In this document: positions 42,661 to 62,645 of the stretch, in pieces
How the letters are laid out: each line of letters begins with the position of its first letter
How positions within the stretch are numbered: the stretch's first letter is position 1
Origin: a virus
Lineage: Duplodnaviria; Caudoviricetes
DNA: 64,000 nucleotides
Reading direction: 5' to 3' (one strand)
Virus record (IMG/VR): IMGVR_UViG_3300020577_007133
Location: 40,773-104,772 of that record
The notes under the pieces: generated by a model
What the model saw: the letters and a program-made list of their open reading frames with translations, nothing else
The model's database searches: none
What the model was told of the DNA's origin: nothing
Position numbers and translations under genes: made by a program

Positions 42661-45600
42661 GTGAGTCAGAATATAAATCAATATCCAAGACCTAATTGGG
42701 GTATAAAGTTAGCGATTGATGCTAGTGATATGACCTTAGTTAATGATGAGAGAAACTATAATGAAGAAGTGGTTTTCTCACCATATCTTATTGCTCAAAC
42801 ATACGGTAATAGATTACCTTTTTCTTTTGATACTAATAATTCAGATTCGGTACAACCATTAGATTTGAGTTACAAACAATATGATTTTGATAATGTTTTT
42901 GTATCAACGAATTATTATAACCCGGACAACATTGATTTAAGTTGTTTAACCGCAAACACATCTTGTGATATCGGTTTAACAGGTATTGACAATGGTTTGG
43001 TTACGGATATGACGGGTCAAACAATAACATTTACGAATGGAATTAATGATTTCACCAAATTTGATAGATTATCGTTTGATAGAAGATTAAAAATGTTCCA
43101 AGTTACGGGATATACCAGTTCAAATGTTAGATTCTCGGGATTTGATAAGACCATATTATATGAGGTTGTAAGTAAAAACGATTCTGTTGGGTATTATCAC
43201 GAATTATATGGTGGTTTCTACCAAGGGTTTTATAAGTTATTTGGTTATGATTATGAAATTTTCCCTGAAAGAATGAATAAGGGATGGTCGGTTGAGATGT
43301 TATTAAAACCAAGATTAACTAACGAATATGGACCATCTTCAGGTGAAACAACATTAAACGAAATATACCCGGAAAATAAAGATATTTTCTTTTATTTTGG
43401 AACTCGTGCTGAGAATAAATTTTATCATTATGCTGATGGACATCCAAGATGTTTAACTGGATATAATAGAGTAACTTCAGAGGTTACCGGATTAACAACT
43501 TGTGCTTGTTGTGATAATTCTGTGGTTAATAGTAGATGTATCTATGTTTATCCACCAAGACCAACAGATAAAGATTGTAATGGATGTATAACTTGTGGAT
43601 GGGAATATAAAATTCACGATTGTCCGGTTGTTACCCCAACTCCAACACCAACCCCTACACCGTCACCGACACCGTCAAATTGTGAACCTATTACCGCTTG
43701 TACCGAAGGTTGTACTTGTTTAAATTGTACAACTTGTAATGAATGTAAAGTGTGTGATACTTGTAATTTAACACCGGGTTCGGTTGAGAATACTTGTGAG
43801 AGTGACCCGTTATATGATTCGATGTCTAATGTAATTGCATTAAAATTATGTGGTGACCCAAAAAACCCACAAATCGGGGTTAGATTATTAAGATTTACCG
43901 GAGATTGTGTAACAACCGGTAGTTGTTCAACAACAGGTATAACATATTCAACAGGTTATACAATAGATAATTATTGTACTCCAAACGGAATATATGATTA
44001 TTGTGAGAATATAAATCCGGATTATTTGGAAAGCGAACATTGGTTCCACGTAACGGCCGTTTGGGAAAGATATACTTGGTTAGATACTTGTGATTTATGG
44101 TATAGAGGTGGATTAGGAGATATAACTGAAACTAAATACTTAGATGGTTTAGCGGAAAATTCTGTTGCACTAATTACTGTACCATATACTCAAACTTGCG
44201 GAACTGACCCACAACAAATCGATTTGGTTAATCTAAATGAAAAATGGTTAATCGATAAAGATTTCAGAAAAGGAAGATTAAAAATTTATGTTAACGGAAG
44301 GATATTCCATACATTCCAAGACATTGAAGAAATAATACCGAGAGGTTTAAATACCGATAAAGAGAAACAGGTTGGAGTCCCATTTAATATTTCTTGGGGT
44401 GGTGGAACACAAGGTTTAAGAGAGAATTTAACATTCTCATCAACAACCGGAACAACATATATCCAAGACCCAGAATCTTTACCAACAAATGACTTAAGTG
44501 GTACCACATATAGTGGTTTAACTACTAATATATTATTGGAACAAAATTTCGGTGGAACATTTGAGGGGGGGGTATCTCAATTCAGAATGTATGTATCACC
44601 ATTATCAGCACCTGAGGTTAAACATAATTTCAACTTATTAAAAGATACTTTTGATATGTTTAATCCGGATTGTCCTGATTGTGGTGAAAATTTCTGTCCG
44701 GTAAATGATTTTAGTTACGAAATTAATGGTGAAACCCCAACACCTACACCTACGATAACAGAAACTCCGACTAATACCCCAACTCTAACCCCAACACAAA
44801 CACCGACAAATACTCTAACACCAACACCTACAATAACAGAAACTCCAACTAATACACCAACAATGACACCCACGCCAACTCTTACGTCAATCCCGCCACA
44901 ATTAACCCTTATAGTTGATTATACACCAGGCTCTATCATTGCTTCATATTCATTATTTTTAAATCGTTTATTTACCGAAGAGATAAATGTTACTTTTGAA
45001 AATATTTTAGATGTTTATAGTGGCAACCCAATTACGATAGTTACGGGTGTTACTATTAATTTAGGTAATTTTTCAGGACAAACTATTGTAACAATAAATG
45101 AAGATTACAATAACTTTAATGGTAATGTTAGTTTTAGTCAATTATCTGGTACTCCAAGTGGAAGCACATATACAATTGAGTATATTAATCCATTTCCCAC
45201 ACCAACACCAACTATAACCAATACTCCAACCGAGACTCCAACTCAAACACCGACCGAGACTCCTACAAATACGCCAACACCAACGGTGACTGAAACTCCT
45301 ACAAATACACCTACTAATACACCTACACCTACTGTAACTGAAACGCCAACTAATACACCAACTCCAACTGTAACAGAAACTCCAACAAATACTCCTACTC
45401 CAACAGAAACTCCTACACCTACTGTAACTGAAACTCCTACGCCTACTGTAACCGAAACTCCGACAATTACACCTACCCCAACAGTAACGCCAACTCCAGG
45501 ACTATCACAAACACCTACACCTACAAATACTGTAACTCAAACCCCAACTAACACCCCTACAAATACTGTAACACCAACAATGTCGTCACAAACAGTTACA

Positions 45601-46902
45601 TATTCAACATCAACATCTATTATTGCAAACCCTGAAAGAGGTTTACAAAAATATTCTAAAAATGTGAGTAGTAATGGTTCTTACGATTTTGTTAATCAAA
45701 CCACATTAATTAATAATAGAACGGGTAGTGATAAAGTAACAGTTTTATATAGATATATAATCCTGAGTGGGTACAATAATACGGATATTATAGATTCCAC
45801 TTATTTGGATAATTTACAAACAGATTTTAATAGAATAAGAAATGCTGGAGTTAAAGTGATTCCTAGAATTAGTTACAATATAGTAACAACCGCTAATACA
45901 CAACCTTCAAAGGCTAGAATTATATCACATATAGAAGCATTGGCGAGTACAATAAATGCAAATAAAGATATTATTTTATCTATACAAGCAGGTTCTATTG
46001 GATTATATGGTGAGTGGTATTATACTGATAGTAGTGTTGAGTTTGGAGACCAAGGTAATATATCCCCAAGTCAATGGTTAAACAGAAAAGATGTTGTTGA
46101 TGCTATGTTAACTAACTTTGAAGATGTCCCTATTCAGGTAAGAACTGCTAAGGCTAAACAAGAAATGTACGGTAGTACTTTAATATCAGGTTCAACAGCT
46201 TATCAAAATACACCATTGGCTCGTGTTGGTTTTTATAATGACGCATTATTGAATGATTATGGGGATGAAGGTACATATGATGTTAGTGGTCAATGTACAA
46301 ATCCTGTTGGTTCATTTGATTATGATTTTATATCTAATGCAGGTTTTTATCTACCTAACACCGGAGAATCAAATGGTTTTAATTCGTGTGATGGAGGATT
46401 AAGGACTAGTGGTGCAAACGCAACCTATGAATTTAATTTATTAAATTTTAGTGTTATAAATAGAGATTATTACCTACCAATTTGGGATAATTGGATATCA
46501 ACTGGTTATTATGATGAAATACTAAAAAACATGGGTTATAGATTAGAATTAATCTCTTCAACTTTAAGTGGTAGTAATTTATCATTAATTATTGATAATG
46601 TAGGATACTCAAAAATACTTTTTGAGAAAAAAACATATATAATATATAGAGATAATTTAAATAACGAATATAAAAGACTTTTACCGTTAGATATAAGAAC
46701 ACTAACTAAAGGTCTTAATACTGTCAATATTACGCTACCGAATGATGTGCCAAGTAATTCTTATTCATTGTTACTACAAATAACGGATAAAAATAGTGGC
46801 TTGGAAAATAGAGTAGAATACTGTATCCAATTAGCAAATATCGGATTATGGGAATCAATTACGGGTTATAATAATTTATTACAAACAGTTATAGTAACTT
46901 AA
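42661..46902 (+). CDS. large virion-associated protein: Cys-rich regions, three Pro/Thr tracts, C-terminal DUF4874/DUF4832-like glycoside-hydrolase-fold module
   Basis: (TP)n and TETPT tracts; C-terminal [32 protein letters not shown] and MGYRL. Confidence 0.7.
45195..45580 (+). repeat. long imperfect tandem repeat encoding [12 protein letters not shown] (mucin-like tract)
   Basis: About 130 codons, mostly ACN/CCN; shorter tracts near 4660, 5010, 43630, 44730, 47130, 54040, 54290, 54570, 54900, 55770 and 62560. Confidence 0.9.
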
Positions 46903-46917
46903 AACATAAAATAAAAA

Positions 46918-47937
46918 ATGAGTACAATTACAATACAAAGTATAAATTATAGTGGTGAGGTTGCAAATATTATATTTAAACCTTACGGACTAAATAATGT
47001 GATTAATTTAGGGAATCAAACGTTACCTTATATTTTTAACCCAACATTATTAACACCACCCCAAAATGTATATGGTGTTTATACCATATTGGTTGAGGGT
47101 GCGGATTGCCCGTCAATATTAAATGTTCCATTACCAACACCAACTCCTACACCAACAATAACTGCAAGTCCAACACAAACACCAACACCTACGGTTACCC
47201 CTACAGTAACACCAACATTTGACCCTTGTAAAATAACACCAACTCCGACTAATACCCCAAGTGTAACCCCAACAAAAACACAAACACCAACACCGACACA
47301 GAGTCCGGGGGCGTCTCCAACACCAACGAATACACCAACCACAACAAAAACACCTACACCGACACCAACACCATTATATTTTGCGTATTTATTTATAGAA
47401 CCGGTTTCAGGGTCAACAGATATTGGACAATGGATGTATGATAATGGAAGAAATTTCTTTGGATTTACTAATTATTCCCAACCAACTCAAGACCAAACTG
47501 AGTTTGATATCGATATGAATACTTATGTTGATTTTAGTGGTTGGACTGACGGTTTGTTCCCGGCATTAATTAAACAAACGGTTCCACAAATATCAGGTGG
47601 TGAAGATAGTTTTAATAATTCAATCGTTGCTTACAATTTCTTAACAACTGAAATACCTAGTGATTACGTTAATGGATTTGGATGGTACTCTTGGATGATT
47701 CCGGTTTCATTAACAAATAATGAAAGACAAATTATGATTGACTTGAATACTAGTAATAATCCTAATTTATTAACCGGTGTTGGTACAGAATTAACAATTA
47801 ACTCTTACACTTTCACCTATACAGGAACAACGATTCCGCAAACAACTTATAGAGTTTACACAACGTATCCTAATACTATATTTAAAATAATAGACACTCA
47901 AAATATTTATATGAGAGGTAATACAATAGCACCATAA
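46918..47937 (+). CDS. Pro/Thr-linker putative virion protein
   Basis: Two globular parts separated by an ~80 aa (TP)n tract. Confidence 0.75.
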
Positions 47938-47938
47938 T

Positions 47939-50900
47939 ATGAGTAATTTTTTAGAAAAAATACCGGTTTCACCTATAACTTCTTTTGGTAGTCCATCAGT
48001 AACGAATGGTTCTACTATTGGAACTAACTTCAGTATTTTACAAGTTGGTGGATATATGGAAGTATATTCATTATCAGGTTTAACATATACAATACCACCG
48101 GTTACCGGTCAAATTGAATTTACCGGTAATACAATTCCGATTCATTTTACAAAAGGTTCAGGGTCTGTATTCTCACCTGACGTATTAACACTTAACTCTG
48201 ACAATATTTCTTCGGGTAGAAGAAAATTGGGAATGTTAGTTTATGTATATGAAACGGAGAAAATTTATCAATATACGATTGACAATTATGAGACATTATG
48301 GAATAACGCGACCGGAGCAACCGGTCCTGGTGGACCAACAGTGGTTATCTCAGATTTTGGAACAACAGTAAAAAATAACTCACCTGAAGGGATTGCTTTT
48401 ATAAATGCTTGGACATCATCTACAATATCAGGAATTGATGGTTATGACGATACAAATGCGTCTTGGAGAGTGTTACAAACAGGTGGGAGTGGAGTTTCAA
48501 TAACCGGAGGTTCATTTAATAATACTACGGATACTTTAACCTTAAATAATTCAACCGGTGGTACAATAACTATTACCGGATTCACAGATTATTATACAAC
48601 CGGATTTACCTTTAATCCTTCTAACTATGATTTAACGATAGAAAGAAATGACGGATTACCTAGTTTATCCGTTAATTTATCAATTTTAGCTTCGGATGTA
48701 ACAATTACCGGTGGTACGTACAATTCATCCACAGGTACCGTAACATTTACTAATAATACTGGTGGGACATTTAATGTTACCGGTTTTCTAACCGGTTTTA
48801 CTGACATTTATGTAACCGGAGGTACATTTAATAATAGTACTAAAATACTAACATTAAGACGTTCAGATAATATTAATATCAATATCTCAGGGTTTACCGA
48901 TACTTTTGTTACCGGAGCAACTAAGTCAGGGACGGTTGCAACATTTACTAATAATACCGGAGGTACATTTACATTAACAGGTTTGACGGATGTTTTTGTT
49001 ACCGGTGGTACTTATTCATCATCAACCGGTATTACTACTTTTAGAAACAATACTGGTGGTACATTTAATATTTCGGGATATTTTAAACCTTCAGATGATA
49101 TATATGTTACCGGAGGTACTGTTAGTCACGGTCCAAACGAAGCAAATAATGTTTTATATTTAAACAGAAGTGATAATAATACGGTAACCATACAAAATCT
49201 TGTGGATGTTTACGAGATAAGTAGAAATGATTTATTAGGTGTTATTGCAGATAAAGCTGTAATTAAAGGTAAAACATATAAAGTCAATAAATGTGACTCA
49301 GTATTATATGATAATGGTACAAATAGTGAAAGTGATAATGTTTATACCACGATATATTTAATAGGTGTTTCAAATAGCAAGGTGTCTGAGTCTGGTATTG
49401 GTGTATTTTATACCCCTAAATATTCTGATATATCTATATTTGTTGAACTTTATGTGTATACAGAATCTGATTTAGTTATCTGGGGTGGTTATGTTTGGAA
49501 ATGTAAAACAAGTGGTACGTATAATAGTCTTGACACTTTTACGTTAGATACTAATTATTGGGAGCTAATATTACCTTTTACCAATTCAAATGAACTTAAC
49601 ACTGAAGATTACACAATTCGTTATGATGACGTTATTTATGATATAGATAATGATATAATCATTTATCGTAATGAAGAGAATATTAATATAGTAAGTACTA
49701 CTGTTGAAAATATTGATTATTGGGTTAATAAAAAATCATTTTATAATCCAATTAGAGCATTCCAATGGGGTAATATTTATACTAATGATAAAGGTATCGG
49801 GAACCAAATTATTATTAATTCATACAATGAAAATATAAATTATACAGGTGATTACCAAATAAATTTTTACTTTGAAGGTGGAAGTTATTTGAGAAATAAT
49901 TTTGTAGAGGTTGGTTCGTATCAAAGAAATTTCTATTTTAAGGATAATTCATACCAAGATGATAGTACTTTAACCAGAATATCAAGTCAAAATTCTTTGT
50001 TTTTAACAAATAATTCTTATATATCAAAAATTACCCTTAGTCAATCATATCAAGACAATATCTATTTAGATAATGATTCTTATATGGACAGTATATTGAT
50101 AACTAAAGGTTCAAATCAAACCTCTATAAAGTTAAATGGATATTCATATTTTGAAAATATTATATTAAAATCCGATAGTTCTTATCAAGATAGTTTATGT
50201 TTCACTAATAATTCATACCAATCTAACATTACTTTTGGTCCTGAGTGTTATCAGTTTAATTTTAATTTTAATAATGGTTCATATCAAAATATTATAAATT
50301 TACAAAACAACGGTAAATTTTCACAACAAGAATATTTTGATTTTAATAACGGTTCTTACCAATCTAACATAACCATTGATTCTAATAAGCAAGAATATTT
50401 TACATTTAATAATGGTTATCAAGATAATTGTAGTGATAATAAAGGTCAATCTTATATCGTAATTGAAAATGGTTCTCAGATAAAGGGTTTTACTGACGCT
50501 CAAGATAAAATAACAATTAAAGGTTATAATTTAGATTGGGGAAGTTACGCATCAATAGCACAAAGTGGATTATTTTTCATCCACAATTTACCAAACGAAA
50601 CAACAACAAGTCTTATAGGTAAAAAAGATAACAGACTTGTTGAAGTTAGTGATTTATATTTTGATGGTAATAAATGGGTGTTAACTGGTAATATAACGGT
50701 TGGAGGTTTAACCGCAACAACACTTTCGGCATCCACATATTTAGGATTACCAATTGATATTAGAGTTACCGGAGCAACTAAATCAGGGACGGTTGCAACA
50801 TTTACTAATAATACCGGAGGTACTTTTACTCTAACAGGGTTGACTGATACATTTGTAACCGGTGTAACTTATATAAATAACACGTTCACATATACAAATA

Positions 50901-53176
50901 ATACCGGGGGAACTTTCAGTGTGTTTTTCAACACTATGACGGGATTAACAGTTAATACTATATCAGCACAAACATTTTACAATCAAGGAGTTGATATTAT
51001 TAGTTCATTATATAACGTAGAATCTACCGGTACCGATGATTTTAGTGGTTTAACTAGAGTGTCAGCAACTCAGTTTAATGTTGCTCCGGTACACGGATAT
51101 ATAGTTAATAATGATTCTATTAATAAGACTATTATAGAAGTTAATTATTCTGGGATTACTAATCAAACAACACCATTTTTAAATACGGATGTTGCAACCT
51201 ATGTTTTAATAAATTCAGGTTCAACCTTAGTATTACAAAACACATATCCAACACCAACAGAAAGAAGAGATAATATATTTTTAGGTCGTATTGCTCATCC
51301 GGATAAAACAAGTATTGTAACGGCAAATAATACTTCTGATTTTATTCAGTCACCTATGTCTGTGATAAGGGATATGTTTACTCCAATTCCTTTAATTAAT
51401 TCAGGTATTGTTGTTACACCTAATGGTACTAATTTAAGTATAAATACTTCGGCAGGTTCTTTATATGGTTTAGGTATTAATTATTATTTAAACAAAAAAA
51501 ATCCGGATGTTGTTTCTATTTCAGGTAATTCACCTACGACTTTTCAATATAGAACTCAAACAGGTGGTACATTATCAAATACAACGTTAATTGACCCGAC
51601 TAACTATGATTTAAATGGTGTAATAACACCCATAGGTAGTCCTGCGAAACAAGCCACAAATCAAAGAATATATTTATTCCCTTCGGGACAAATAAGAATC
51701 CAATATGGTCAACAAAAATATTCTGATTTAACAAGTGCGGTTGCAAATGTATTAACAGAACCATTCATTACGTTTTCAAACAACAGAGATAATGCAATAC
51801 TAATCGGTATTATTTCAGTGGCGTCTGATGCTACTGATTTATCAAATCCTTTAGAGGCGTATTTCAGTAGTGTTTCAAAATTTGGTGAGTTATTAGGAGG
51901 TACGGGAGGTCTTTCAACTACTACATTACAACAAGCTTACGATAATTCAACAACACCTGAGATAGTTATAAATTCAACATTAGATGGATTATCAATTAAA
52001 AATGGAACCGGAAATGCCGATAATATAACAAACTTAATTGAAGGTATTAATTCAGGTGGTACTACAACCTCGTTTGTTCGTTCGGATGGGTTATTTTCAG
52101 GTAATTCTGTATCAACCCCGGGATTCACGGCAAACACAAATGGTGCTACGGGTGTAACTATTTCGGCATCAACATATCTAGGTTTACCAACAGATATTAG
52201 AGTTACCGGTGGAACTTATAGTGGTGATACTATAATATTTACCAATAACACCGGTGGAACTTTTAGTGTAACAGGGATTACAACAAGTTCATCATTTACC
52301 GGAGGAACTGTGTCAGGAGAGACTAACTTTACCGGTGGTTTAACCGCTAACACAATATCTGCAACAACATATCAAAATTTACCACCTATTAGTTTAGATG
52401 GGTTATCAGATGTTACTATTTCAACAGGTGTTACAACAGGTAATACTTTAATGTTTGATGGAAGTTTTTGGCAAAATGTTGACCCATTTGATTATTTTGA
52501 TGCTAAACCTGTTATATATCAAAAACATACCAACATACCAACATTTGGTGGTCTTGGTATAAATAATGTTGAAGGTGTTGGTATCATAGCAAATGGTGCA
52601 ACATTAAGAAGCTGGGCAGATACTAATTTGGTAACAAGAGGACAAAGACTTGGTATGGTTGTTTCTACGACTGGTAGTTTATCACAATTAAGACAAACTT
52701 TAAATTATATGAGTATAAATGGTGGGTTTGACATGATAACTGCTTTTAGTATGTCAGAAAATGCAACCGATACTGCTATTAGATTTTTTATAGGACTTAC
52801 AACGAATATTATTTTTACCAATGTTGAGCCTGACACTCTATTAAATATTATTGGTATCTGTAGATTATCATCCTCTAATAACTTACATTTAATCAATAAT
52901 GATAATACTGGCACAGCAACAACTTTAGATTTAGGTTCAAATTTTCCAGCCAATACAATTGATACTGATAAGTATCAATTAAATATTAAAACAATATCAG
53001 GGGGTATTTATCTCAAATTAGATAGACTTGGTACATCTTTTTATTATGAAACAATAATAACATCAGATATACCATCAAATTCAACTGGTTTAAAATTTGG
53101 AGCATATATTGTCGATACATCAGGTCCGAATGTTAGCACTGGTTTCGATTGGTATGGAACACATATAAAAATATAA
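47939..53176 (+). CDS. long tail-fibre-like protein
   Basis: 1745 aa; RRKLGMLVYV motif; many DxxVTGGT..T.TFTNNTGGTF repeats; central SYQxN beta-helix-like repeats. Confidence 0.7.
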   Translation: MSNFLEKIPVSPITSFGSPSVTNGSTIGTNFSILQVGGYMEVYSLSGLTYTIPPVTGQIEFTGNTIPIHFTKGSGSVFSPDVLTLNSDNISSGRRKLGMLVYVYETEKIYQYTIDNYETLWNNATGATGPGGPTVVISDFGTTVKNNSPEGIAFINAWTSSTISGIDGYDDTNASWRVLQTGGSGVSITGGSFNNTTDTLTLNNSTGGTITITGFTDYYTTGFTFNPSNYDLTIERNDGLPSLSVNLSILASDVTITGGTYNSSTGTVTFTNNTGGTFNVTGFLTGFTDIYVTGGTFNNSTKILTLRRSDNININISGFTDTFVTGATKSGTVATFTNNTGGTFTLTGLTDVFVTGGTYSSSTGITTFRNNTGGTFNISGYFKPSDDIYVTGGTVSHGPNEANNVLYLNRSDNNTVTIQNLVDVYEISRNDLLGVIADKAVIKGKTYKVNKCDSVLYDNGTNSESDNVYTTIYLIGVSNSKVSESGIGVFYTPKYSDISIFVELYVYTESDLVIWGGYVWKCKTSGTYNSLDTFTLDTNYWELILPFTNSNELNTEDYTIRYDDVIYDIDNDIIIYRNEENINIVSTTVENIDYWVNKKSFYNPIRAFQWGNIYTNDKGIGNQIIINSYNENINYTGDYQINFYFEGGSYLRNNFVEVGSYQRNFYFKDNSYQDDSTLTRISSQNSLFLTNNSYISKITLSQSYQDNIYLDNDSYMDSILITKGSNQTSIKLNGYSYFENIILKSDSSYQDSLCFTNNSYQSNITFGPECYQFNFNFNNGSYQNIINLQNNGKFSQQEYFDFNNGSYQSNITIDSNKQEYFTFNNGYQDNCSDNKGQSYIVIENGSQIKGFTDAQDKITIKGYNLDWGSYASIAQSGLFFIHNLPNETTTSLIGKKDNRLVEVSDLYFDGNKWVLTGNITVGGLTATTLSASTYLGLPIDIRVTGATKSGTVATFTNNTGGTFTLTGLTDTFVTGVTYINNTFTYTNNTGGTFSVFFNTMTGLTVNTISAQTFYNQGVDIISSLYNVESTGTDDFSGLTRVSATQFNVAPVHGYIVNNDSINKTIIEVNYSGITNQTTPFLNTDVATYVLINSGSTLVLQNTYPTPTERRDNIFLGRIAHPDKTSIVTANNTSDFIQSPMSVIRDMFTPIPLINSGIVVTPNGTNLSINTSAGSLYGLGINYYLNKKNPDVVSISGNSPTTFQYRTQTGGTLSNTTLIDPTNYDLNGVITPIGSPAKQATNQRIYLFPSGQIRIQYGQQKYSDLTSAVANVLTEPFITFSNNRDNAILIGIISVASDATDLSNPLEAYFSSVSKFGELLGGTGGLSTTTLQQAYDNSTTPEIVINSTLDGLSIKNGTGNADNITNLIEGINSGGTTTSFVRSDGLFSGNSVSTPGFTANTNGATGVTISASTYLGLPTDIRVTGGTYSGDTIIFTNNTGGTFSVTGITTSSSFTGGTVSGETNFTGGLTANTISATTYQNLPPISLDGLSDVTISTGVTTGNTLMFDGSFWQNVDPFDYFDAKPVIYQKHTNIPTFGGLGINNVEGVGIIANGATLRSWADTNLVTRGQRLGMVVSTTGSLSQLRQTLNYMSINGGFDMITAFSMSENATDTAIRFFIGLTTNIIFTNVEPDTLLNIIGICRLSSSNNLHLINNDNTGTATTLDLGSNFPANTIDTDKYQLNIKTISGGIYLKLDRLGTSFYYETIITSDIPSNSTGLKFGAYIVDTSGPNVSTGFDWYGTHIKI

Positions 53177-53617: not shown

Positions 53618-53821
53618 ATGATAGAAATTAAATACCCCCCAGTTACAACGTACTTTATCTCATATGAAGATAACGATACTAACCCTCATTATGGTGAGGT
53701 TAATTCGGACCAATATATGATTACTCCGAAACCTAATTTATTTTCAACTACGAATAAAGAAGAATATATTACGGAGTTATTAACTTATGGAATAACTTTA
53801 GACACAACAGATATCGTATAA
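53618..53821 (+). CDS. hypothetical protein
   Basis: 67 aa ORF coupled to the next gene. Confidence 0.6.
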   Translation: MIEIKYPPVTTYFISYEDNDTNPHYGEVNSDQYMITPKPNLFSTTNKEEYITELLTYGITLDTTDIV

Positions 53822-55830
53822 TGCAAGTAATTCAAATCACTAGTTTAACGGGGCATTCTCCTTATGATATTACAATTTGTGATATTACCAACACATATTG
53901 TTATTCCGGGGTAACCGGAGCAACAAGTGTTCCGTTAACTATTGATATACCAACAGAATTGTCGGGTACAACAGAATTATTAGTCGTTGTTACAGATTCA
54001 ATTGGTTGTCAAGAAATTCAATATCATATTTGTGATGAACCGATACCGTCTCAAACTCCAACCCCAACCCCAACAATTACACCAACAAATTTAACGTGTA
54101 ATTGTATTTCAATTGAGAACCCTTCCGGGGTTACATTAAATTTTGGGTATACTCAGTGTGATGGATTACCTTTTTATGGTCCAATATATTCCGCAACAAC
54201 ATTATATGTTTGTGGTAAAGACCCCTATGGTGATGTTGGTTTAAATATTAATATATCTACCGAGATTTGCACCGGGGATGTTTGTTTAGGTCCAACGCCT
54301 ACACCAACAACAACACCTACCCCAACGCCAACCTTACCACCGGTTGTAGGGTATTTCCAAGATACTTGTGATTTATCATACGAATTTGTATTAACCAATT
54401 TACCACCATCATTTGTTCCTACCTATGGAATTTATTACATCCAAAGTTCGGGTTATGTTGGTTGTGCGATAAGTATAACAGGGACAAGTTCTACTAATAT
54501 TTTTTCATTTGTAGCTTTAGGGTCTCAACCAAGTACTTACCATTGTCAAAAGGCTAATTTCATTTATCCTTGTCCGACATTAACACCGACTCCGAGTATT
54601 ACTCCTACAATAACACCAACCCCAACAGTTACAATGACGGTCACGCCAACAAATACTATTACACCGACACCAACAACATCCTCAATATACAATATTTTTA
54701 AAGTTAGGTCTTGTTGTGACGGTGATGAAATAATAAAATTTATGAGTTTGCCGTCATATTTTTTACCCGGAATATCGGTTGTTGATAATTCTGGTAATTG
54801 TTGGAGAATTTTATCAACCTCAACAATTACCCCAAATGAATTTTGGAATCACGGAACAACATATCTTTTTTGTGACCCTTGTATTGATGTTCAAACTTGT
54901 TCCCCAATACCTACTGTCACGCAAACAACAACTCCAACACCAACTGTAACACCTTGTGTTCCACAAATGATATATAGTGGTGAAAACTTTACTAGTATGG
55001 AACTTAGTAATGGAGCGTCTTTCAAGTCGGACGGTACAATAGTATACGTTAGCACTCATAATGGTTCACCACTTGATAATATTAGTGCTTATTCATTATC
55101 AACTCCGTGGGATGTTTCGACAATTAATTTACCAAAAATTGGAAATTCAATTGGGTTCCCATTGGGTAACCCTAGTTCGGTGATTGGTCAGTATTTTTCA
55201 CCGGATGGTCTTAACTTATTTTTTGCAAATGGTGCCCGAAACGGTGTTTTCAAATACACATTGTCGACACCGTGGGATGTTTCAACGTCTATTTATTCTC
55301 CAGGTGATTTCGTTACAGGAGCAACTTTAACAGGAGCATCATTTTTAGAATTTACCCCTGATGGTTTATTTATGTTTGTCACAGTTACAGGTAGTCTTCT
55401 TAAAAAATATAGTTTAACCACACCTTGGGTTATAAGCTCGGGGGTAGTAGAAATTCAATCAATATCTGTTGACACTACTTTTGATTTTACTTTTCAAAAT
55501 AACGGATATTACTTATTTTCTATGATTGATATTTTTGGAAGTTTAAATATTAGAAAACAGGTATTATCAACACCTTACGATTTAACTTCAATTGTTTTAA
55601 CAGAGACAAAAGATGTGACTAGTTTTATACCTAACGGTAATTTATATACGATTAGTTTTAGAGACGGTTTTAAAGGATTTATTAGTGGTTATTATTCTTC
55701 AGGACCGGCACGTACAGAAGTTTATGCTTTTAATCTTACCTGTGAGTATGATATTAATGGGTCACTAATATTACCTACACCAACACCTACCCCAACTAAC
55801 ACTTTAACACCAACACCAACACAACCATAA
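53821..55830 (+). CDS. mucin-like protein: Cys modules alternating with five Pro/Thr tracts plus a YxLSTPWDVST-repeat beta-propeller
   Basis: Repeats F..DG...Y.LSTPWD(V/L)S; ends in (TP)n. Confidence 0.75.
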   Translation: MQVIQITSLTGHSPYDITICDITNTYCYSGVTGATSVPLTIDIPTELSGTTELLVVVTDSIGCQEIQYHICDEPIPSQTPTPTPTITPTNLTCNCISIENPSGVTLNFGYTQCDGLPFYGPIYSATTLYVCGKDPYGDVGLNINISTEICTGDVCLGPTPTPTTTPTPTPTLPPVVGYFQDTCDLSYEFVLTNLPPSFVPTYGIYYIQSSGYVGCAISITGTSSTNIFSFVALGSQPSTYHCQKANFIYPCPTLTPTPSITPTITPTPTVTMTVTPTNTITPTPTTSSIYNIFKVRSCCDGDEIIKFMSLPSYFLPGISVVDNSGNCWRILSTSTITPNEFWNHGTTYLFCDPCIDVQTCSPIPTVTQTTTPTPTVTPCVPQMIYSGENFTSMELSNGASFKSDGTIVYVSTHNGSPLDNISAYSLSTPWDVSTINLPKIGNSIGFPLGNPSSVIGQYFSPDGLNLFFANGARNGVFKYTLSTPWDVSTSIYSPGDFVTGATLTGASFLEFTPDGLFMFVTVTGSLLKKYSLTTPWVISSGVVEIQSISVDTTFDFTFQNNGYYLFSMIDIFGSLNIRKQVLSTPYDLTSIVLTETKDVTSFIPNGNLYTISFRDGFKGFISGYYSSGPARTEVYAFNLTCEYDINGSLILPTPTPTPTNTLTPTPTQP

Positions 55831-55890: not shown

Positions 55891-55909
55891 AGATATTTAT
55901 ATAATATGG
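55891..55909 (+). repeat. 19-bp perfect inverted repeat, left copy (partner at 62041-62059)
   Basis: AGATATTTATATAATATGG versus CCATATTATATAAATATCT; contains the promoter motif and start codon. Confidence 0.85.
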
Positions 55910-56061
55910 GAAGAAAACAAAAATCGTTAGAAGAAAAAAAAATTAAAGTCAGTATTAGTTTAGATAGAGAATTATATTCTTTAATTAAACAAGACAAATT
56001 AATGCCGTCCCGTATTATCGAAAAATTGGTTAGAGAATATTATGGAAACAAAAATTTGTAG
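55906..56061 (+). CDS. 51 aa ribbon-helix-helix-like protein (missing from the ORF track)
   Basis: Hand translation MGRKQKSLEEKKIKVSISLDRELYSLIKQDKLMPSRIIEKLVREYYGNKNL*; overlaps the HNH start by 20 nt. Confidence 0.8.
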   Translation: MGRKQKSLEEKKIKVSISLDRELYSLIKQDKLMPSRIIEKLVREYYGNKNL

Positions 56062-56629
56062 TAAATGTAAAGTTAATAAAGATGTTTGTGAATTTCATAA
56101 AGGAAAAACTAAGGATGGATATCAATACCAATGTAAAGAATGTAAAAAAAAATATTCATTATTAAATGTTAATAAAGAAAACATACGTAAAAATACTTGG
56201 AAATTAAATAATCCTGATAAAGTAAAAAGTGCCAAACAAAAATATTATCAAAATAATAAGTTTAAAGAAATTAAACGCAACACCGAATATGGGAATAAAA
56301 GAAAAAAAATTGATAACATTTTTAAATTGTCGTGTATTGTTAGGTCAAGAATTTATGAGTTTATAAGAAAAAATAATATTAAAAAAACAAACAAAACTTT
56401 TGATATTGTTGGTTGTTCACCAAAATATCTTAAAGAACATCTTGAACAACAATTTACTGAAGGAATGTCTTGGGAATTAATGGGGAAATACATTCACATT
56501 GACCACAGAATACCTTTATCCTCAGCAAAAACTGATGAAGAAGTTTACAAACTTTGTCATTATACTAACCTTCAACCAATGTGGGCTAAAGATAATTTAA
56601 AAAAATCAAATAAAATGATGTATTTATAA
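56042..56629 (+). CDS. HNH endonuclease with N-terminal Zn ribbon
   Basis: CSKC...CKEC; GCS..LKEHLEQQF.EGMSW...HIDHRIPLS...CHYTNLQPMWAKDNLKKS. Confidence 0.88.
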   Translation: METKICSKCKVNKDVCEFHKGKTKDGYQYQCKECKKKYSLLNVNKENIRKNTWKLNNPDKVKSAKQKYYQNNKFKEIKRNTEYGNKRKKIDNIFKLSCIVRSRIYEFIRKNNIKKTNKTFDIVGCSPKYLKEHLEQQFTEGMSWELMGKYIHIDHRIPLSSAKTDEEVYKLCHYTNLQPMWAKDNLKKSNKMMYL

Positions 56630-56661
56630 AAATGTTTTTTTATTTTTTTAATAAAAAAATT

Positions 56662-57912
56662 ATGAATACTATTTTTATACAGATTGCGTCCTATCGTGAC
56701 CCCCAACTTAAACCAACTATTGATGATTGTATTAAAAACGCTAAATACCCAAACAATTTAGTATTTGGAATAACTAATCAATATCATCCTGATGATGAAT
56801 TTAATATCGATGAATATCAACAAGATGAGAGGTTTAGAATTGAAAATATCTTATATTCGGAATCCAAAGGAGCTTGTTGGGCTCGAAATTTATTACAACA
56901 AAGGTATAGTGGTGAAACCTATACACTTCAAATTGATTCTCATATGAGGTTTACACCTAATTGGGATGTTGAAATGATAAAAATGATTAAACAACTTCAA
57001 AAGAAAGGATTTAAGAAACCTTTATTAACCGGTTATGTTTCATCTTTTGACCCGGACAACGACCCGGCCGCAAGAGTTCAAGAACCTTGGAGAATGTCTT
57101 TTGATAGATTTATACCGGAATCTCCTGTATTTTTCTTACCTGAAACCATTCCGGGATGGCAACAATTGACAGAACCTGTACCAGCAAGATTTTATTCCGC
57201 ACACTTTTGTTTTACGTTAGGACAATTCTGTAAAGAGGTCCCACACGATGAGAATTATTATTTTCACGGAGAAGAAATATCTGTGGGTGTTAGAGCTTTC
57301 ACTTGGGGTTATTCTTTATTCCATCCTCATAAAGTTTTAATTTGGCACGAATATACAAGAAAAGGAAGAATTAAGTCCTGGGATGATGATAAAAAATGGG
57401 TTGATAAAAATAATTCATCACATTTAAGAAATAGAAAACTATTCTCTATGGATGGTGAAATTTATAACCCGGAAGAGTTCGGGATTTATGGTTTCGGGTC
57501 AGAAAGAACTTTAAAAGATTATGAAATATATTCAGGATTAAGATTTTCAAGAAGAGCGGTACAACAATATACTTTAGACAAATATTATCCACCTAATCCA
57601 ACAATTTATGAAACGGAAGAAGATTGGGAAAATAGTTTTGCAACCATTTTTAAACACTGTATCGATATTGGGTTTCATCAGGTCCCGGAAAAGGATTATG
57701 ATTTTTGGGTAGTTGCTTTCCACGGAGAAAATGATGAAACAATATTCAGAAAAGATGCGGATATTAATGAAATTAATATGATGATGAAGGACCCGGATGG
57801 TTATTGTAAAATTTGGAGAGAGTTTCAAACTATCCATAAACCAAAATATTGGGTTGTATGGCCTCATAGCACGTCAAAAGATTGGTGTGAGAGAATAACG
57901 GGTAATTTGTAA
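56662..57912 (+). CDS. GT60-like polypeptide/hydroxyproline alpha-GlcNAc transferase
   Basis: Motifs TIFIQIASYRD, SKGACWARN, LQIDSHMRF..NWD, FYSAHFCF, VPHD..YFHGEE and WHEY; likely start MNTIF. Confidence 0.8.
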   Translation: MNTIFIQIASYRDPQLKPTIDDCIKNAKYPNNLVFGITNQYHPDDEFNIDEYQQDERFRIENILYSESKGACWARNLLQQRYSGETYTLQIDSHMRFTPNWDVEMIKMIKQLQKKGFKKPLLTGYVSSFDPDNDPAARVQEPWRMSFDRFIPESPVFFLPETIPGWQQLTEPVPARFYSAHFCFTLGQFCKEVPHDENYYFHGEEISVGVRAFTWGYSLFHPHKVLIWHEYTRKGRIKSWDDDKKWVDKNNSSHLRNRKLFSMDGEIYNPEEFGIYGFGSERTLKDYEIYSGLRFSRRAVQQYTLDKYYPPNPTIYETEEDWENSFATIFKHCIDIGFHQVPEKDYDFWVVAFHGENDETIFRKDADINEINMMMKDPDGYCKIWREFQTIHKPKYWVVWPHSTSKDWCERITGNL

Positions 57913-57915
57913 AAT

Positions 57916-59562
57916 ATGAATATTCATAATATTAAAAAAATTGTAATCAACTTAAAACGTAGACCGGATAGATTAGAAAGTTTTGAAAAAGAAATGAACT
58001 TTATCGGTTGGGATTATGAAGTTTTTGATGCAATAGATAAAGGTGGTTATGTTGGATGTGCATTATCTCATCAAGAAATAATTAAGGAATTCGTTAACTC
58101 GGATGATGAATACATTATGATTTTGGAGGATGACTGTTTTTTTATGCCATATGCTAAAAATCAGTTAGAAAAATCATTAGGAGAATTAAAAAATACTGAA
58201 TGGGATTTTTTACATTTAGGTCCGAGTATAAACTGTCCGGTAAATAATTATTCTGAAAACTTATTAAATTTATTCGAATTACCAAAACAAGAACCACATC
58301 ATCGGGGGATATATAATACAGTTTGTTATATTACAAACAAAAAATTTGCTAAAAGAATCTTAGATTGGGTTGTTGAAAGTCAAAAAGCTATAGACCAATT
58401 TTTCTACGAAGACATATACAAAGAATTAAAATGTTTTGCAACTTCTATCCCGATAGTAACCCAAAAAAATGGTTTTTCAGATATAAATAACACAAACGAT
58501 AATAACCATTATCTAATAACTTACAATTGGAATTTATATACTGAAAATAAAATAAGTACTTTGTATTACGATATAAATTATTGTGAAAAGGAAAAAAAAT
58601 ATCCTGAACAAATCACAAAAAAAATAAATAAAAAAGTTGAAATAAAATTCCCTATTTTAGAAGTAAAATCTGAATATAGAGTAAAATTTATAACCGCCAT
58701 ATATTCAAATTTAAATGGAACTGAATTAGGTGGAAGACCAAATAGATTTGGTCATTACAGGTGGAGTTTGTTATCTATAATGAAAATGTCTGATGCTGAT
58801 TTTATTTGTTACACATCACATGAAGAATTTGAGGGTTTGGAAAAGTTTTTTTATGAAGAAAATAATGTTGATAGAAAAAAATTACAAATTGTGAAATTTA
58901 ATTTGTATGAAAATGAATTTTCTGATGTAATAAGCAAATATAAAGATGTTGAAGGAATAAAAAGAGGGGATAGATGTATTGAAATTCAGTATATGAAATT
59001 TATTTGGTTTCTTAATGAAGATAAAAGTTATGATTACTATTATTGGATTGATGCGGGTCTTTCACACTGTGGATTGATACCTAACAAATATCTCACGTTA
59101 TCCGGTCCTCATAATAGGGGTTATTATGAAAGTTCATTATTCAATAATTTATTTTTAAACAATTTAATTAAAAAAACCGGTGATAAGTTTTCAATAATTG
59201 GGAAAGAGAATGATAGAAATTTTTGGTCTGGTACTGTGAACCCAAAACATTTTTTTAACTATGATAGAACGATTCATATAATAGGTGGTATGTTTGGTGG
59301 AAGAAAAGAACTATGGGAAACAATTGTTGAATTATTCAGAGAATATGTTTATAAAGTTTCTGAAGAGGATGGAAGATTGTATCATGAAGAAGATATTATG
59401 ACACTTATGTTTAGAAACCATTCTGAGCTATTTAATGATTTTTATTTTGAAACTTGGTGGCATGAAAATGAAAGAATAGAAGGAACTAACATGGAAGAGC
59501 ATGTAAAAAATAATAAAAGTTTTTATAAGATATTAACAGAACTTAATAACATATATGAATAA
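57916..59562 (+). CDS. GT25 domain fused to an HtrL/YibB-like domain
   Basis: N-terminal VINLKRRPDRL, GCALSH, ILEDD; C-terminal ITAIY, YYWIDAGL, GGMFGG, EEDIM. Confidence 0.75.
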   Translation: MNIHNIKKIVINLKRRPDRLESFEKEMNFIGWDYEVFDAIDKGGYVGCALSHQEIIKEFVNSDDEYIMILEDDCFFMPYAKNQLEKSLGELKNTEWDFLHLGPSINCPVNNYSENLLNLFELPKQEPHHRGIYNTVCYITNKKFAKRILDWVVESQKAIDQFFYEDIYKELKCFATSIPIVTQKNGFSDINNTNDNNHYLITYNWNLYTENKISTLYYDINYCEKEKKYPEQITKKINKKVEIKFPILEVKSEYRVKFITAIYSNLNGTELGGRPNRFGHYRWSLLSIMKMSDADFICYTSHEEFEGLEKFFYEENNVDRKKLQIVKFNLYENEFSDVISKYKDVEGIKRGDRCIEIQYMKFIWFLNEDKSYDYYYWIDAGLSHCGLIPNKYLTLSGPHNRGYYESSLFNNLFLNNLIKKTGDKFSIIGKENDRNFWSGTVNPKHFFNYDRTIHIIGGMFGGRKELWETIVELFREYVYKVSEEDGRLYHEEDIMTLMFRNHSELFNDFYFETWWHENERIEGTNMEEHVKNNKSFYKILTELNNIYE

Positions 59563-61231
59563 CATAACATTAGTAACCGGATTATGGGATATAGGAAGAG
59601 AAAATTTACAAGAAGGATGGTCTCGTTCATTCCAACATTATTTAGATAAATTTCAACAACTATTACAAGTTGATGTGAATATGATTATTTTTGGAGATGA
59701 AGAATTAGAAAAATTTGTATCAGAAAATAGACGAAGTGAAAATACACAATTTGTTCGTAGAGATTTATCTTGGTTTAGGAATAATGAATTTTATGACAAA
59801 ATACAAAAAATAAGAACCAACCCTGAGTGGTATAATCAAGTTGGTTGGTTGTCAGAATCTACACAAGCTAAATTAGAGATGTATAATCCTTTGGTGATGT
59901 CCAAAGTTTATTTATTACACGATGCAAAGATTTTAGATAAGTTTGATTCAGAATATATGTTTTGGATTGATGCCGGATTAACAAATACTATTCATCCGGG
60001 GTATTTTAGCCACGATAAAGTTTTAGATAAATTACCAAAGTTAGTTAAAAACTTCCACTTTGTTTGTTTCCCATATGAAACCAACAGTGAAATCCACGGG
60101 TTCAAATATCAAGAGTTATGTGAGTTAGCCGGTAAACCGGTTAATATGGTTGCTAGAGGTGGTTTCTTTGGTGGTAAAAAAGAAGTGATTTCGGAAATCA
60201 ATACGATTTATTATGGGTTAATGAAAGATACTTTATCCCAAGGTTTAATGGGTACTGAAGAATCTTTATTTACTATTATGACTTACAAGTATCCAAATCT
60301 AATTAGTTATTCTGAAATTGAGGGTAATGGTTTGATGGGTAAATTCTTTGAAGATTTAAAGAATATGTCAGTCGAAGTTAAATCGGAAATACCAAAGGAT
60401 GTGGTTGTTAATAATTTAGACACTTCAAAGGTTGGTCTTTACGTAATTACATTTAACTCACCAAAACAATTAGAAGTTTTAATTCAATCAATGTTAGATT
60501 ATGATAAAGATTTTATTGAAAAACCAAAAAAATTCTTATTGGACAATTCAACAGATTTATCAACAACACCAAGATATCTTGAAATATGTGAACAATATGG
60601 TTTTGAACATATTAAGAAAGACAATATTGGTATTATGGGTGGTAGAGTATTTGTTGCGGAACATTTTAATGAAACCGATTTGGACTTTTATTTTTTTTGG
60701 GAAGATGATATGAATTTATATCCAAAAAAAGGTGAAGTTTGTAGAAATGGGTTTCCAAGATATGTAGATAATCTTTATCAAAAATCATTAGAGATTATTG
60801 AAAAAGATAATTTTGATTTTTTAAAATTGTCTTTTACTGAATTTTATGGTTCAAATGATATACAATTTTCGTGGTATAACGTTCCACAGGACTTCAGACA
60901 AAATAATTGGCCTAATAACCCTAAATTACCGGTTCAAGGATTAGACCCTAACGCACCAAAAACAGAATTTAAAAATATTAAGATACACAAAGGATTACCA
61001 TATGTTAATGGTGAAATATATATTTCTAATTGGCCAATAGTATTAAACAAAGAAGGTAATTACAAATGTTATCTAAAAACTAAATGGCAATTTGCATATG
61101 AGCAGACTACTATGTCTTATGTTTATCAAGAAACAGTGAAAGGAAATATTAATCCCGGATTATTATTATTATCACCAATAGAACACGACCGGTTCCATCA
61201 TTATGACGGTTCATTAAGAAAAGAATCTTAA
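59555..61231 (+). CDS. HtrL/YibB-like domain fused to a GT-A-like domain
   Basis: TLVTGLWDIGR, YNPLVMSK, FWIDAG, GGFFGG, GTEE; second domain FFWEDD. Confidence 0.7.
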   Translation: MNNITLVTGLWDIGRENLQEGWSRSFQHYLDKFQQLLQVDVNMIIFGDEELEKFVSENRRSENTQFVRRDLSWFRNNEFYDKIQKIRTNPEWYNQVGWLSESTQAKLEMYNPLVMSKVYLLHDAKILDKFDSEYMFWIDAGLTNTIHPGYFSHDKVLDKLPKLVKNFHFVCFPYETNSEIHGFKYQELCELAGKPVNMVARGGFFGGKKEVISEINTIYYGLMKDTLSQGLMGTEESLFTIMTYKYPNLISYSEIEGNGLMGKFFEDLKNMSVEVKSEIPKDVVVNNLDTSKVGLYVITFNSPKQLEVLIQSMLDYDKDFIEKPKKFLLDNSTDLSTTPRYLEICEQYGFEHIKKDNIGIMGGRVFVAEHFNETDLDFYFFWEDDMNLYPKKGEVCRNGFPRYVDNLYQKSLEIIEKDNFDFLKLSFTEFYGSNDIQFSWYNVPQDFRQNNWPNNPKLPVQGLDPNAPKTEFKNIKIHKGLPYVNGEIYISNWPIVLNKEGNYKCYLKTKWQFAYEQTTMSYVYQETVKGNINPGLLLLSPIEHDRFHHYDGSLRKES

Positions 61232-61908
61232 TTTAATATTTTATCACTTTTCTTCAAATTATCTTCAGCCCATAGTGGTTGAAGATTTGTGTAATGACAA
61301 AGTTTATAAATTTCTTCTTCGGTAGTTGCGGATGATAATGGTATGATGTGGTCAATGTGCCACCCATATCGACTATAATTTTCCCAAGACATCCCATTAG
61401 TAAATTGTTTTTCTAAATGTTCTTTTAAAAATTCTAAAGAACAACCAACAATATCTAAAGTTCTATTATTTTTTGGTATTTTGTTAGTTTTTAATATATT
61501 GTAAAATCGACTTCTAATGTTAAATTGTATTTTTTTAAGGGGGTTTGTTTCACGAGTAATCTTCATATAATTTCTATTATATTGTTTTACTTTTTCTTTA
61601 TTTTTTTCTTCCCATATTTTATTAGATTCTCTATGTTTTTCTTTATTTAAATTATACCAATTTTTATTTATTTTTTTTACTTTGTCAGTATTATTTATAT
61701 AATAATTTTTATTGTATTCAGGATTTTTATTATACCAATTTTGTAAAGTTTCTTTTCTTTTATTCACATTATTTTCTCTATAAATTTTACCATCGATTTT
61801 ACGACACTCTTTACAAGAAGTTCTTAATCTGTCCTTAGTTGAATTGTGTACCCCGAATTCACATACATCTTTTTCTTCTTTACATTTACTACATATCTTT
61901 TTTTCCAT
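61228..61908 (-). CDS. HNH endonuclease with N-terminal Zn ribbon (paralogue of 56042..56629)
   Basis: CSKC...CKEC; WHIDHIIPLS...CHYTNLQPLWAEDNLKKS. Confidence 0.9.
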   Translation of the reverse strand: MEKKICSKCKEEKDVCEFGVHNSTKDRLRTSCKECRKIDGKIYRENNVNKRKETLQNWYNKNPEYNKNYYINNTDKVKKINKNWYNLNKEKHRESNKIWEEKNKEKVKQYNRNYMKITRETNPLKKIQFNIRSRFYNILKTNKIPKNNRTLDIVGCSLEFLKEHLEKQFTNGMSWENYSRYGWHIDHIIPLSSATTEEEIYKLCHYTNLQPLWAEDNLKKSDKILN

Positions 61909-62044
61909 AATATTCTCTCAATAGTTTATTAAGTAATGTTGATTTTTTTACTTTTTCTTCAACCATTCGGTCAAATAAATCTCGGTCTAAACTTATCCCA
62001 AATTTAACCTTTCTGTTTTCTTCTAATTTTGTTGGTCTTGCCAT
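61889..62044 (-). CDS. 51 aa ribbon-helix-helix-like protein (missing from the ORF track)
   Basis: Hand translation MARPTKLEENRKVKFGISLDRDLFDRMVEEKVKKSTLLNKLLREYYGKKDM*; same 20 nt overlap with its HNH gene. Confidence 0.8.
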   Translation of the reverse strand: MARPTKLEENRKVKFGISLDRDLFDRMVEEKVKKSTLLNKLLREYYGKKDM

Positions 62045-62141
62045 ATTATATAAATATCTCGTTTATTGTTAAAGTTTCACTATAACTAATAATAATTAAA
62101 TATTTTTGTTTTATCAACTATTTATAAATAAAAAACGTCAA

Positions 62142-62645
62142 ATGAATTTTAACATAAAAAAAAATGCCACATTACCAATTTTAAAACTTTCTGTGATAAA
62201 GGACGGACGCAGTGACTATAATAATTTTATGGAATTGTTGGAGACTTCAACCATATTCTTTTCTATGGTTAATTCTGATACAGGTATTCCAAAAATAACT
62301 TCAAGACCTGCAGGATTTGTAGAAAAGATTTTTGATGAACCAAATGCTGAACCTGAATACTACATTTATTATCAATTTACTAAACAAGACACTAGCATAG
62401 AAGGTAGATATGAAGGTCAATTTTTAATCAAAACTGATGACGGTAATTTAATTTTACCTATCAGAGAAAAGTTATTTATTTATATTCAAGATTCTTTTAT
62501 TGCTGATGATTTAACATACACAACTTGTTATACCTCAGAGTTTCCTTGTTGTGCTGTACCGACACCCACACCAAGTGTTACCACTACACACACACCAACT
62601 CCAACTTTAACACCTACACCAACTTTGACACCTACTCCGTCATAA
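62142..62645 (+). CDS. BppU-like beta-sandwich structural protein with a C-terminal Pro/Thr tail
   Basis: FNIKKNATLP.L...YYQFTKQDT..EGRYEGQF, then CCAV(PT)n to the stop; ATG at 62142. Confidence 0.6.
   Translation: MNFNIKKNATLPILKLSVIKDGRSDYNNFMELLETSTIFFSMVNSDTGIPKITSRPAGFVEKIFDEPNAEPEYYIYYQFTKQDTSIEGRYEGQFLIKTDDGNLILPIREKLFIYIQDSFIADDLTYTTCYTSEFPCCAVPTPTPSVTTTHTPTPTLTPTPTLTPTPS

Follow-up and report, generated by a model that had tools for sequence, protein, structure and literature searches.

Why does a phage genome hold a glycosyltransferase (GT) of a polypeptide-modifying family together with genes whose products carry long threonine/proline tracts? This question is raised by a 64,000-nucleotide stretch (the window), which corresponds to bases 40773-104772 of a 104,772-base IMG/VR viral contig with a CheckV completeness of ~35%. 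The most likely reading, and one that we consider probable, is that the phage O-glycosylates Thr/Pro stalks of its own proteins in the cytoplasm: a family GT60 enzyme encoded at 56662-57912 would prime the tracts and the transferases of the same gene cassette would extend the sugar. This reading builds on the observed family, fold and intact active site of the enzyme, on the presence of the tracts and on the finding that tracts and GT60 are distributed together. Since the GT60-tract pairing recurs in unrelated phages and in bacteria, the phage probably sugar-coats its own appendages.

All open reading frames (ORFs) of the 104.8-kb contig with a product of 80 aa or more were searched, and Thr/Pro tracts were found to be confined to five of them. 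These are the same five that a preliminary description, made from the sequence alone, had listed, and no sixth was found in the contig. The five genes, together with the tract-free tail-fibre gene that lies among them, are given below with their positions in the window and strand.

4408-6189 (+): 593-aa protein encoded between terminase and portal, with two tracts (62 aa) and a DUF5122 beta-propeller
42661-46902 (+): 1413-aa fibre-like protein with an N-domain, a Cys-rich region, four tracts (199 aa) and a C-terminal DUF4874+DUF4832 pair
46918-47937 (+): 339-aa protein with three tracts (75 aa)
47939-53176 (+): 1745-aa tail-fibre-like protein, free of tracts (PHROG 16641 tail fiber, E 1e-19)
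53821-55830 (+): 669-aa protein with Cys-rich modules split by five tracts (108 aa), followed by a beta-propeller-like C-half
62142-62645 (+), with a longer start at 62106: small protein with a 140-aa N-domain and a 28-aa C-terminal Thr/Pro tail (one tract)

The 15 tracts amount to 472 residues, 216 of them Thr (46%), 143 Pro (30%) and 21 Ser (4%), with a Thr:Ser ratio of ~10:1, and they are of the dense Thr/Ser/Pro kind that serves as acceptor in mucin-type O-glycosylation as a functional class. At the codon level, the TPTPTP pattern was observed 14 times on the coding strand of the contig versus 0 and 1 times for the reversed control pattern. The alternation of tracts with Cys-rich modules, which had been attributed to all of these proteins, was clear in the products of 42661 and 53821, where Cys accounts for 2.8% and 3.6% of the residues outside the tracts, against 0.73% in the other window proteins; it was marginal in 62142 and did not hold for the five ORFs as a whole. 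The five had also been called putative virion proteins, a location suggested by their context: a tail-fibre gene is their neighbour, 4408 is flanked by the terminase and portal genes, and the Xanthomonas phage XacN1, described below, offers an analogy. The only tail-fibre profile match belongs to the tract-free neighbour 47939, by which the tract-gene block is anchored as a module for host recognition.

No tract is present in the capsid protein of gp23 type (12390-14207), and a gene for a tail tube was not recognized in the window. When cultured phages were searched with tblastn, 42661 had no match and 53821 gave weak propeller matches only, its C-half weakly resembling hypothetical proteins of roseophages and other phages. 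Pfam searches at E up to 1 returned nothing significant for the unassigned subdomains of 42661, 46918, 53821, 62142 and of the cassette genes 57916 and 59555. In 35 related loci, a gene with the N-domain of 62142 is kept just behind the GT cassette. In the 42661 product, the DUF4874+DUF4832 pair (residues 990-1393) is fused to a phage fibre-like protein and may serve as a tip with enzymatic or binding activity. In four runs, wastewater contigs carried a 78-nt in-frame deletion (window 44770-44847) in the second tract of 42661, which indicates that tract length varies among near-identical strains, and a 195-nt variant was found in wastewater contigs at 49947-50141, in the tail-fibre ORF 47939. 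The window also harbors two IS605 OrfB/TnpB-type genes, at 17395-18597 (+) and 41368-42558 (-), with HTH, OrfB_IS605 and Cas12f-like TNB domains, and a gene of this type adjoins the fibre-like gene block directly upstream.

The enzyme proposed to initiate glycosylation is encoded just downstream of this block.

56662-57912 (+): soluble GT60-family (PF11397) protein, proposed initiating polypeptide N-acetylhexosamine (HexNAc) transferase; an earlier start at 56632 gives a longer ORF

The motifs IASYRD, QIDSHMRF and FHGEE, on which the GT60 assignment had first been made, are all located in ORF 56632/56662, and this assignment was confirmed by profile and structure searches. The 56662 product matched the Pfam family GlcNAc (PF11397) with 226 bits (E 1.3e-66; cut-off 21), covering positions 1-45 and 95-350 of the 352-position profile, and 56632/56662 matched a phage family annotated only as 'glycosyltransferase' at E 8e-163. 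A GT-A catalytic domain (~aa 1-305) is followed by a C-terminal beta domain (~aa 327-416), which phage homologues and many of the bacterial ones share, and for which no family was found in the protein Atlas. The fold was modelled from an alignment with 42 diverse homologues (predicted local distance difference test, pLDDT, 96.2), this model replacing a single-sequence AlphaFold model with a pLDDT of 32.7. The best Foldseek matches of the model were the polypeptide GalNAc-transferases (ppGalNAc-transferases) T4, T2, T1, T10 and T12 and Toxoplasma T3, and its fold similarity to polypeptide transferases was higher by ~4 Z units. Because homologues show little or no variation at D92-x-H94, E204-E205 (of FHGEE) and H229, the active site, with a predicted DxH/His metal site, looks intact. 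Thus, the GT-A fold, the DxH metal motif and the downstream His of a GT27-related enzyme were all found, although this relation to GT27 is at the fold level only, as the sequence search of the PDB gave nothing meaningful with either the single protein or the 42-sequence profile.

No N-terminal signal anchor was found in the enzyme, whose first strand (E4-11) stands at the very start, with no hydrophobic leader from the Met at 56662. It therefore lacks the type II anchor of the Golgi mucin-type polypeptide alpha-GlcNAc-transferase subgroup and resembles the soluble Skp1 Gnt1 branch. All characterized GT60 enzymes transfer N-acetylglucosamine (GlcNAc) to polypeptides, either to Thr/Ser of mucin-type domains, in Dictyostelium and Trypanosoma cruzi, or to hydroxyproline (Hyp) of Skp1, the Skp1-modifying enzyme being soluble and cytoplasmic (PMC8724618). 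From family and modelled fold, the 56662 product is proposed to be an initiating polypeptide HexNAc-transferase. The description of GT60 as a family of protist enzymes was found to be incomplete, since homologues occur in more than 574 bacterial species representatives.

The co-occurrence of GT60 with (TP)n proteins across relatives, by which the preliminary description had proposed to check its idea, was clearly observed. Among 44 related IMG/VR loci with GT60 at 60-91% identity, 38 had a tract protein at most 10 kb away, often as the next gene, and eight of eight large GT60-bearing phage genomes were tract-rich, versus none of nine T4-like or jumbo phages lacking GT60 (immuto, Mel-JY01, uncultured LR756508, XbC2, BF, CBB, GAP32, SCTP-2 and Kaldavass), which gave 0 TPTPTP matches in 3.3 Mb. 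Cultured phages carry GT60 at 44-46% identity, namely the Xanthomonas phages XacN1 and Xoo-sp13 and the Stenotrophomonas phages RAS14 and CM1, the first three being covered by the TPTPTP scan. It was observed that this pattern matched 29 times in XacN1, 26 in Xoo-sp13, 19 in RAS14, 13, 14 and 45 in the genomes G037, G038 and G039, and 14 in the contig of the window, with 0-1 matches for reversed-pattern controls in XacN1, Xoo-sp13 and RAS14. The strict DNA pattern undercounts tracts, as genome G040 scored 0 despite a 763-aa TPTN-type tract protein that adjoins its GT60.

The association was also recovered from the side of the tracts. Viral records chosen only for a (TP)5 tract carried PF11397 in 8 of 36 cases, as compared with 4 of 50,697 phage records overall, and some of these eight carriers are deep lineages, with GT60 at 35-41% identity. 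Direct adjacency of GT60 to a tract protein was seen in the deep lineages L259/L260, G038, L275, L298 and L313, the order in L259 and L260 being GT60, a 265-aa ORF and a protein with three (PT)n tracts. A complete 108-kb genome (G016/L263, GT60 at 29%) was dropped as a tract-rich case, since its matches were antisense to a 735-aa ORF. The link between GT60 and tracts is strong and not obligate, neither partner needing the other, and the data support a link that is much wider than shared gene order within a single clade.

The branch of the GT60 family formed by phages and bacteria is large, with 4425 representative clusters. In the GT60 tree, the XacN1-type enzymes were placed with Burkholderiales, L259/L260 with Verrucomicrobiota, and the window clade with Bacteroidota-binned contigs. 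A single phage clade, tested as a group named after the first tree had been seen, was rejected at a cost of 209.6 log-likelihood units (approximately unbiased, AU, test, p 1.6e-105), and by this phylogeny the phage GT60 genes represent at least three separate lineages. In bacterial loci with GT60 at 35-58% identity, tract ORFs decreased with distance from the gene, from 14 at 0-2 kb (in 273 kb scanned) through 8 at 2-6 kb to none at 6-10 kb (in 437 kb). GT60 was found inside a type VI secretion cluster (TssF, ImpA) both in Ralstonia sp. 25C and in an Achromobacter metagenome-assembled genome (MAG), 0.9-3.7 kb from genes for VgrG spikes, which are assembled in the cytoplasm (Phage_GPD plus gp5 C-domain) and bear (TP)n tails of more than 100 residues (L317:12270-15134 in Ralstonia sp. 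25C and L306:15052-17523 in the Achromobacter MAG). A fimbrial/MrkD-like ORF lies directly 5′ of GT60 in Ralstonia and Paraburkholderia, and the metagenomic proteins P0122, P0123 and P0126, of 1600-2460 aa, contain up to four tandem GT60-like stretches. It may be, and we propose it only tentatively, that GT60 forms the core of a widespread prokaryotic cytoplasmic 'mucin-type' O-glycosylation of Thr/Pro tracts on the appendages of contractile machines (phage fibres and baseplate, VgrG of type VI secretion), with several phage captures from hosts and the protist enzymes as a eukaryotic offshoot.

Among cultured phages, XacN1 offers the closest parallel. Purified XacN1 virions displayed at least two Schiff-stained glycoprotein bands, for which the authors proposed ORF328 and ORF334 as candidate enzymes (PMC5852040), and ORF334 is the GT60 homologue. 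XacN1 resembles the window phage in this enzyme (46% identity), in the same HtrL-like partner (41%), in an ORF332-like domain and in its tract proteins: at least 16 carry TPTxT-type tracts, including ORF325 by the baseplate wedge, ORF369-372 by the tail sheath, and ORF350, and Arg residues are present in the XacN1 tracts. However, it differs in host phylum and GC content, in a GT60 lineage nested with Burkholderiales, in a carbamoyltransferase gene in the place of the GT25 domain, and in tract genes that are mostly not adjacent to GT60.

The genes that surround the GT60 gene were found to be of two kinds, transferases and endonucleases.

57916-59562 (+): two-part transferase with an N-terminal GT25 domain (PF01755, E 8e-15) and a C-terminal XacN1 ORF332-like domain
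59555-61231 (+): 558-aa HtrL/YibB-like protein (PF09612, E 6.7e-20) with a second C-terminal domain, proposed chain extender
56042-56629 (+): HNH-type homing endonuclease flanking the cassette (PHROG 1035 endonuclease VII), outside the glycosylation function
61228-61908 (-): second HNH-type endonuclease, inverted, a paralogue of 56042, sporadic in relatives and outside the glycosylation function

Residues 255-540 of the 57916 product share 29-33% identity with ORFs beside GT60 in XacN1, Xoo-sp13 and RAS14. In 45 phage loci, GT60 is accompanied by a homologue of the HtrL-like 59555, one of them being XacN1 ORF330 (41% over its full length), and an HtrL-like partner stands beside GT60 in 23 of 80 bacterial loci. 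It is thus the HtrL-like gene, and not the sugar island described below, that constantly accompanies GT60 as its fixed partner. In a Myxococcales MAG (L304:17-3649), GT60, the HtrL-like domain and the C-terminal domain of 59555 are united in one 1210-aa ORF. The HNH genes, found in only 7 related loci versus 45 for the HtrL-like gene, are taken as later insertions. In XacN1, the gene directly after GT60 is ORF333 (L047:13439-15736), which encodes a 765-aa carbamoyltransferase with homologues in Xoo-sp13 and RAS14; this suggests that the glycan of the Xanthomonas and Stenotrophomonas phages is carbamoylated, and no carbamoyltransferase gene was found in the cassette of the window phage.

A TATTTAT motif was found 4-34 nt upstream of the genes for the portal, the protease, 10786, the tail fibre 47939, the tract proteins 4408, 42661 and 62142, and GT60, being placed 13 nt 5′ of both 42661 and 4408, and was not found before the genes of the sugar island. 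As a sequence pattern, this distribution fits late co-expression. The following course of events is proposed. Late in infection, the soluble GT60 enzyme would take UDP-HexNAc in the host cytoplasm, most likely UDP-GlcNAc of the host, and through its DxH/His metal site would attach an initial sugar to Thr residues in the tracts, which would serve as links between domains of the fibre-like and appendage proteins. The multidomain transferases 57916 and 59555 would then extend this sugar, and the outcome would be stiff, protease-resistant, glycan-covered stalks in or on the particle. Of the original proposal that the phage primes its own tracts with GlcNAc and thereby obtains a glycocalyx-coated virion, the identity of the GT60 enzyme and its link with the tracts were upheld, the coated virion itself being only inferred.

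The preliminary description had extended this scheme to a second region of the window, which encodes further sugar-related enzymes.

23462-37649 (-): variable sugar island with GT2, GT1-like, PhoH, Gmd, DegT-family, epimerase/reductase, GT10, GT11, GT25, double GT2 and dUTPase genes

About ten further GT domains were supposed to elongate the tract glycans; the count was roughly right, nine having a Pfam match (two of them weak), and their action on the tracts was not sustained. Capping with deoxyhexose is speculative, because Gmd is absent from three of five genomes with both GT60 and tracts (XacN1 and two near-complete relatives) and no link between the island and the tracts was found. Nucleotide-sugar supply had also been placed in the window; a supply of UDP-GlcNAc is not encoded there. 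Genes for PhoH, dUTPase and a PolB-type 3′-5′ exonuclease are interleaved with the island, at 26194-26955 (-) and 35115-36421 (-), and for this reason the island is not a clean sugar operon.

Several observations weigh against glycosylation of the tracts by the GT60 cassette. The GT25 and HtrL/YibB families were named for lipopolysaccharide (LPS) work. Of the 36 tract-bearing viral records, 28 had tracts without GT60, and five of these 28 are complete genomes; in ~60 of the 80 bacterial GT60 loci, the 4 kb around the gene contained no tract ORF. The majority of the tract genes of XacN1 are far from GT60, and its virion glycoproteins are known from the stain alone. Moreover, the late-promoter reading leans on a short AT-rich motif in a genome of 30% GC, and the group submitted to the AU test was chosen after the fact.

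The first two of these points are shared by a different explanation, in which the GT60 cassette would remodel an envelope glycan of the host (LPS, capsule or wall polymer), for example to block superinfection, and the tracts would be plain linkers. The sugar island, with its Gmd, GT10, GT11 and GT2 genes, is likewise of the kind that phages apply to host surface glycans. However, this island is not co-inherited with GT60, the fold is nearer to that of polypeptide transferases, and the enzymes lack a membrane anchor and start at the first strand of the fold. Since it also gives no account of the GT60-tract pairing in three phage lineages and in bacteria, nor of the VgrG link, we regard host-glycan remodelling as unlikely.

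To a similar degree, it is improbable that GT60 acts as in Skp1 modification, on one site of some other protein of the phage or the host, and that the tracts merely travel with it as a trait of phages with elaborate appendages. The Gnt1 branch does modify just one residue in a single cytoplasmic protein, tract ORFs are missing from the surroundings of many bacterial GT60 loci, and the XacN1 GT60 gene is found among replication genes, with genes for DNA polymerase, RNase H and a NUDIX protein close by. Against this stand the steep fall of bacterial tract ORFs with distance from GT60 and the direct adjacency of the two in several deep lineages. In addition, a prolyl hydroxylase (PF13640) was absent from the contig, which represents ~35% of the genome, and from four of five large GT60-bearing genomes, and the Hyp-linked route of the Skp1 type was set aside because this partner prolyl 4-hydroxylase was not found in them. 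Hypermodification of phage DNA with sugars against restriction, as by T4-type glucosyltransferases, is very improbable: although the cassette adjoins a DNA polymerase gene and lies between homing endonucleases, the XacN1 GT60 has the replication-gene neighbours just mentioned, and DNA-decorating phage transferases are diverse (work cited in PMC12619734), the known DNA glucosyltransferase families with their GT-B fold were not matched (the Pfam families of the cassette are PF11397, PF01755 and PF09612, and the model is GT-A), family and fold indicate polypeptide acceptors, the bacterial homologues occur in type VI secretion and surface-protein contexts and not in those of DNA modification, and the association with tracts would be left unexplained.

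The proposed glycosylation of Thr/Pro stalks can be compared with several known systems. The protist GT60 enzymes belong to the same family (226 bits), with a GT-A fold and DxH motif and without a ricin-type lectin domain, and the Skp1 enzyme is likewise soluble; the candidate Thr/Pro acceptors also resemble protist mucin domains, such as the PTVTPT-type domain of T. cruzi gp72. In contrast, the window enzyme is phage-encoded, has an extra C-terminal beta domain of ~90 residues, lacks a Golgi anchor and a prolyl hydroxylase partner, and is known here from sequence and model. The ppGalNAc-transferases (GT27) of animals and apicomplexans have the closest fold, yet share ~12% identity without a sequence match even by profile; they belong to another CAZy family, and their lectin domain is lacking in the window enzyme. 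In the serine-rich-repeat adhesins of Gram-positive cocci, GtfA/GtfB prime a long repeat of hydroxy amino acids with GlcNAc in the cytoplasm, and neighbouring transferases then extend the sugar. This system works alike, but its initiator is an unrelated GT-B enzyme and its acceptors are Ser-rich secreted adhesins.

In mycobacteriophages, transferases encoded by the phage are thought to act in the cytoplasm on structural proteins of the same phage (Freeman et al. 2023, as summarized in PMC12619734), and glycans were experimentally shown on the C-terminal ends of capsid and tail-tube subunits. A C-terminal extension of this type was not found in the window, where the capsid protein carries no tract, the acceptors would be fibre-like linker tracts, the initiator belongs to another family, and the system is known from its genes. 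The 'moraphage' treated in that paper (PMC12619734) is a different jumbo-phage lineage.

The source of the window is a T4-like jumbo phage of roughly 300 kb from wastewater or freshwater. Its packaging and head genes are of T4 type, including the large terminase (2618), a gp20-type portal (6239), a gp21-type protease (9658) and the gp23-type capsid protein (12390), and it is classed as a jumbo phage because near-complete relatives measure 281-321 kb. The GC content of the contig is ~30%. By capsid protein, the closest cultured phages are the Flavobacterium phage immuto and the Microcystis phage Mel-JY01, at ~41% identity. Since GT60 copies at 60-78% identity are carried by MAG contigs binned as Bacteroidota (Saprospiraceae, Bacteroidia and Chitinophagia), the host is likely a member of this phylum. 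Near-identical DNA was found in wastewater, activated-sludge, bioreactor and river samples, and four wastewater 'metatranscriptome' runs contained near-identical multi-kb contigs spanning 42661-62273. These contigs were rejected as a sign of transcription, as such libraries may contain DNA, and they were used for presence and habitat only.

No description of the GT60/tract pairing in phages and bacteria was found in the searchable literature, phage virion glycosylation as such being known. To our knowledge, protein glycosylation of phage particles has been demonstrated experimentally in a few mycobacteriophages only, besides the capsids of giant algal viruses. If the proposed glycosylation is true, a very abundant group of environmental jumbo phages (more than 597 capsid relatives in IMG/VR; 6302 clusters of GT60 proteins) would bear glycan-covered appendages, and cultured Xanthomonas and Stenotrophomonas phages, as well as some bacterial type VI spikes, would be likewise covered. 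There would be consequences for the way hosts are recognized, for resistance to proteases, for adhesion to the polysaccharide matrices of sludge flocs and for the immune recognition of therapeutic phages, and mucin-type O-glycosylation would gain a bacterial and viral history.

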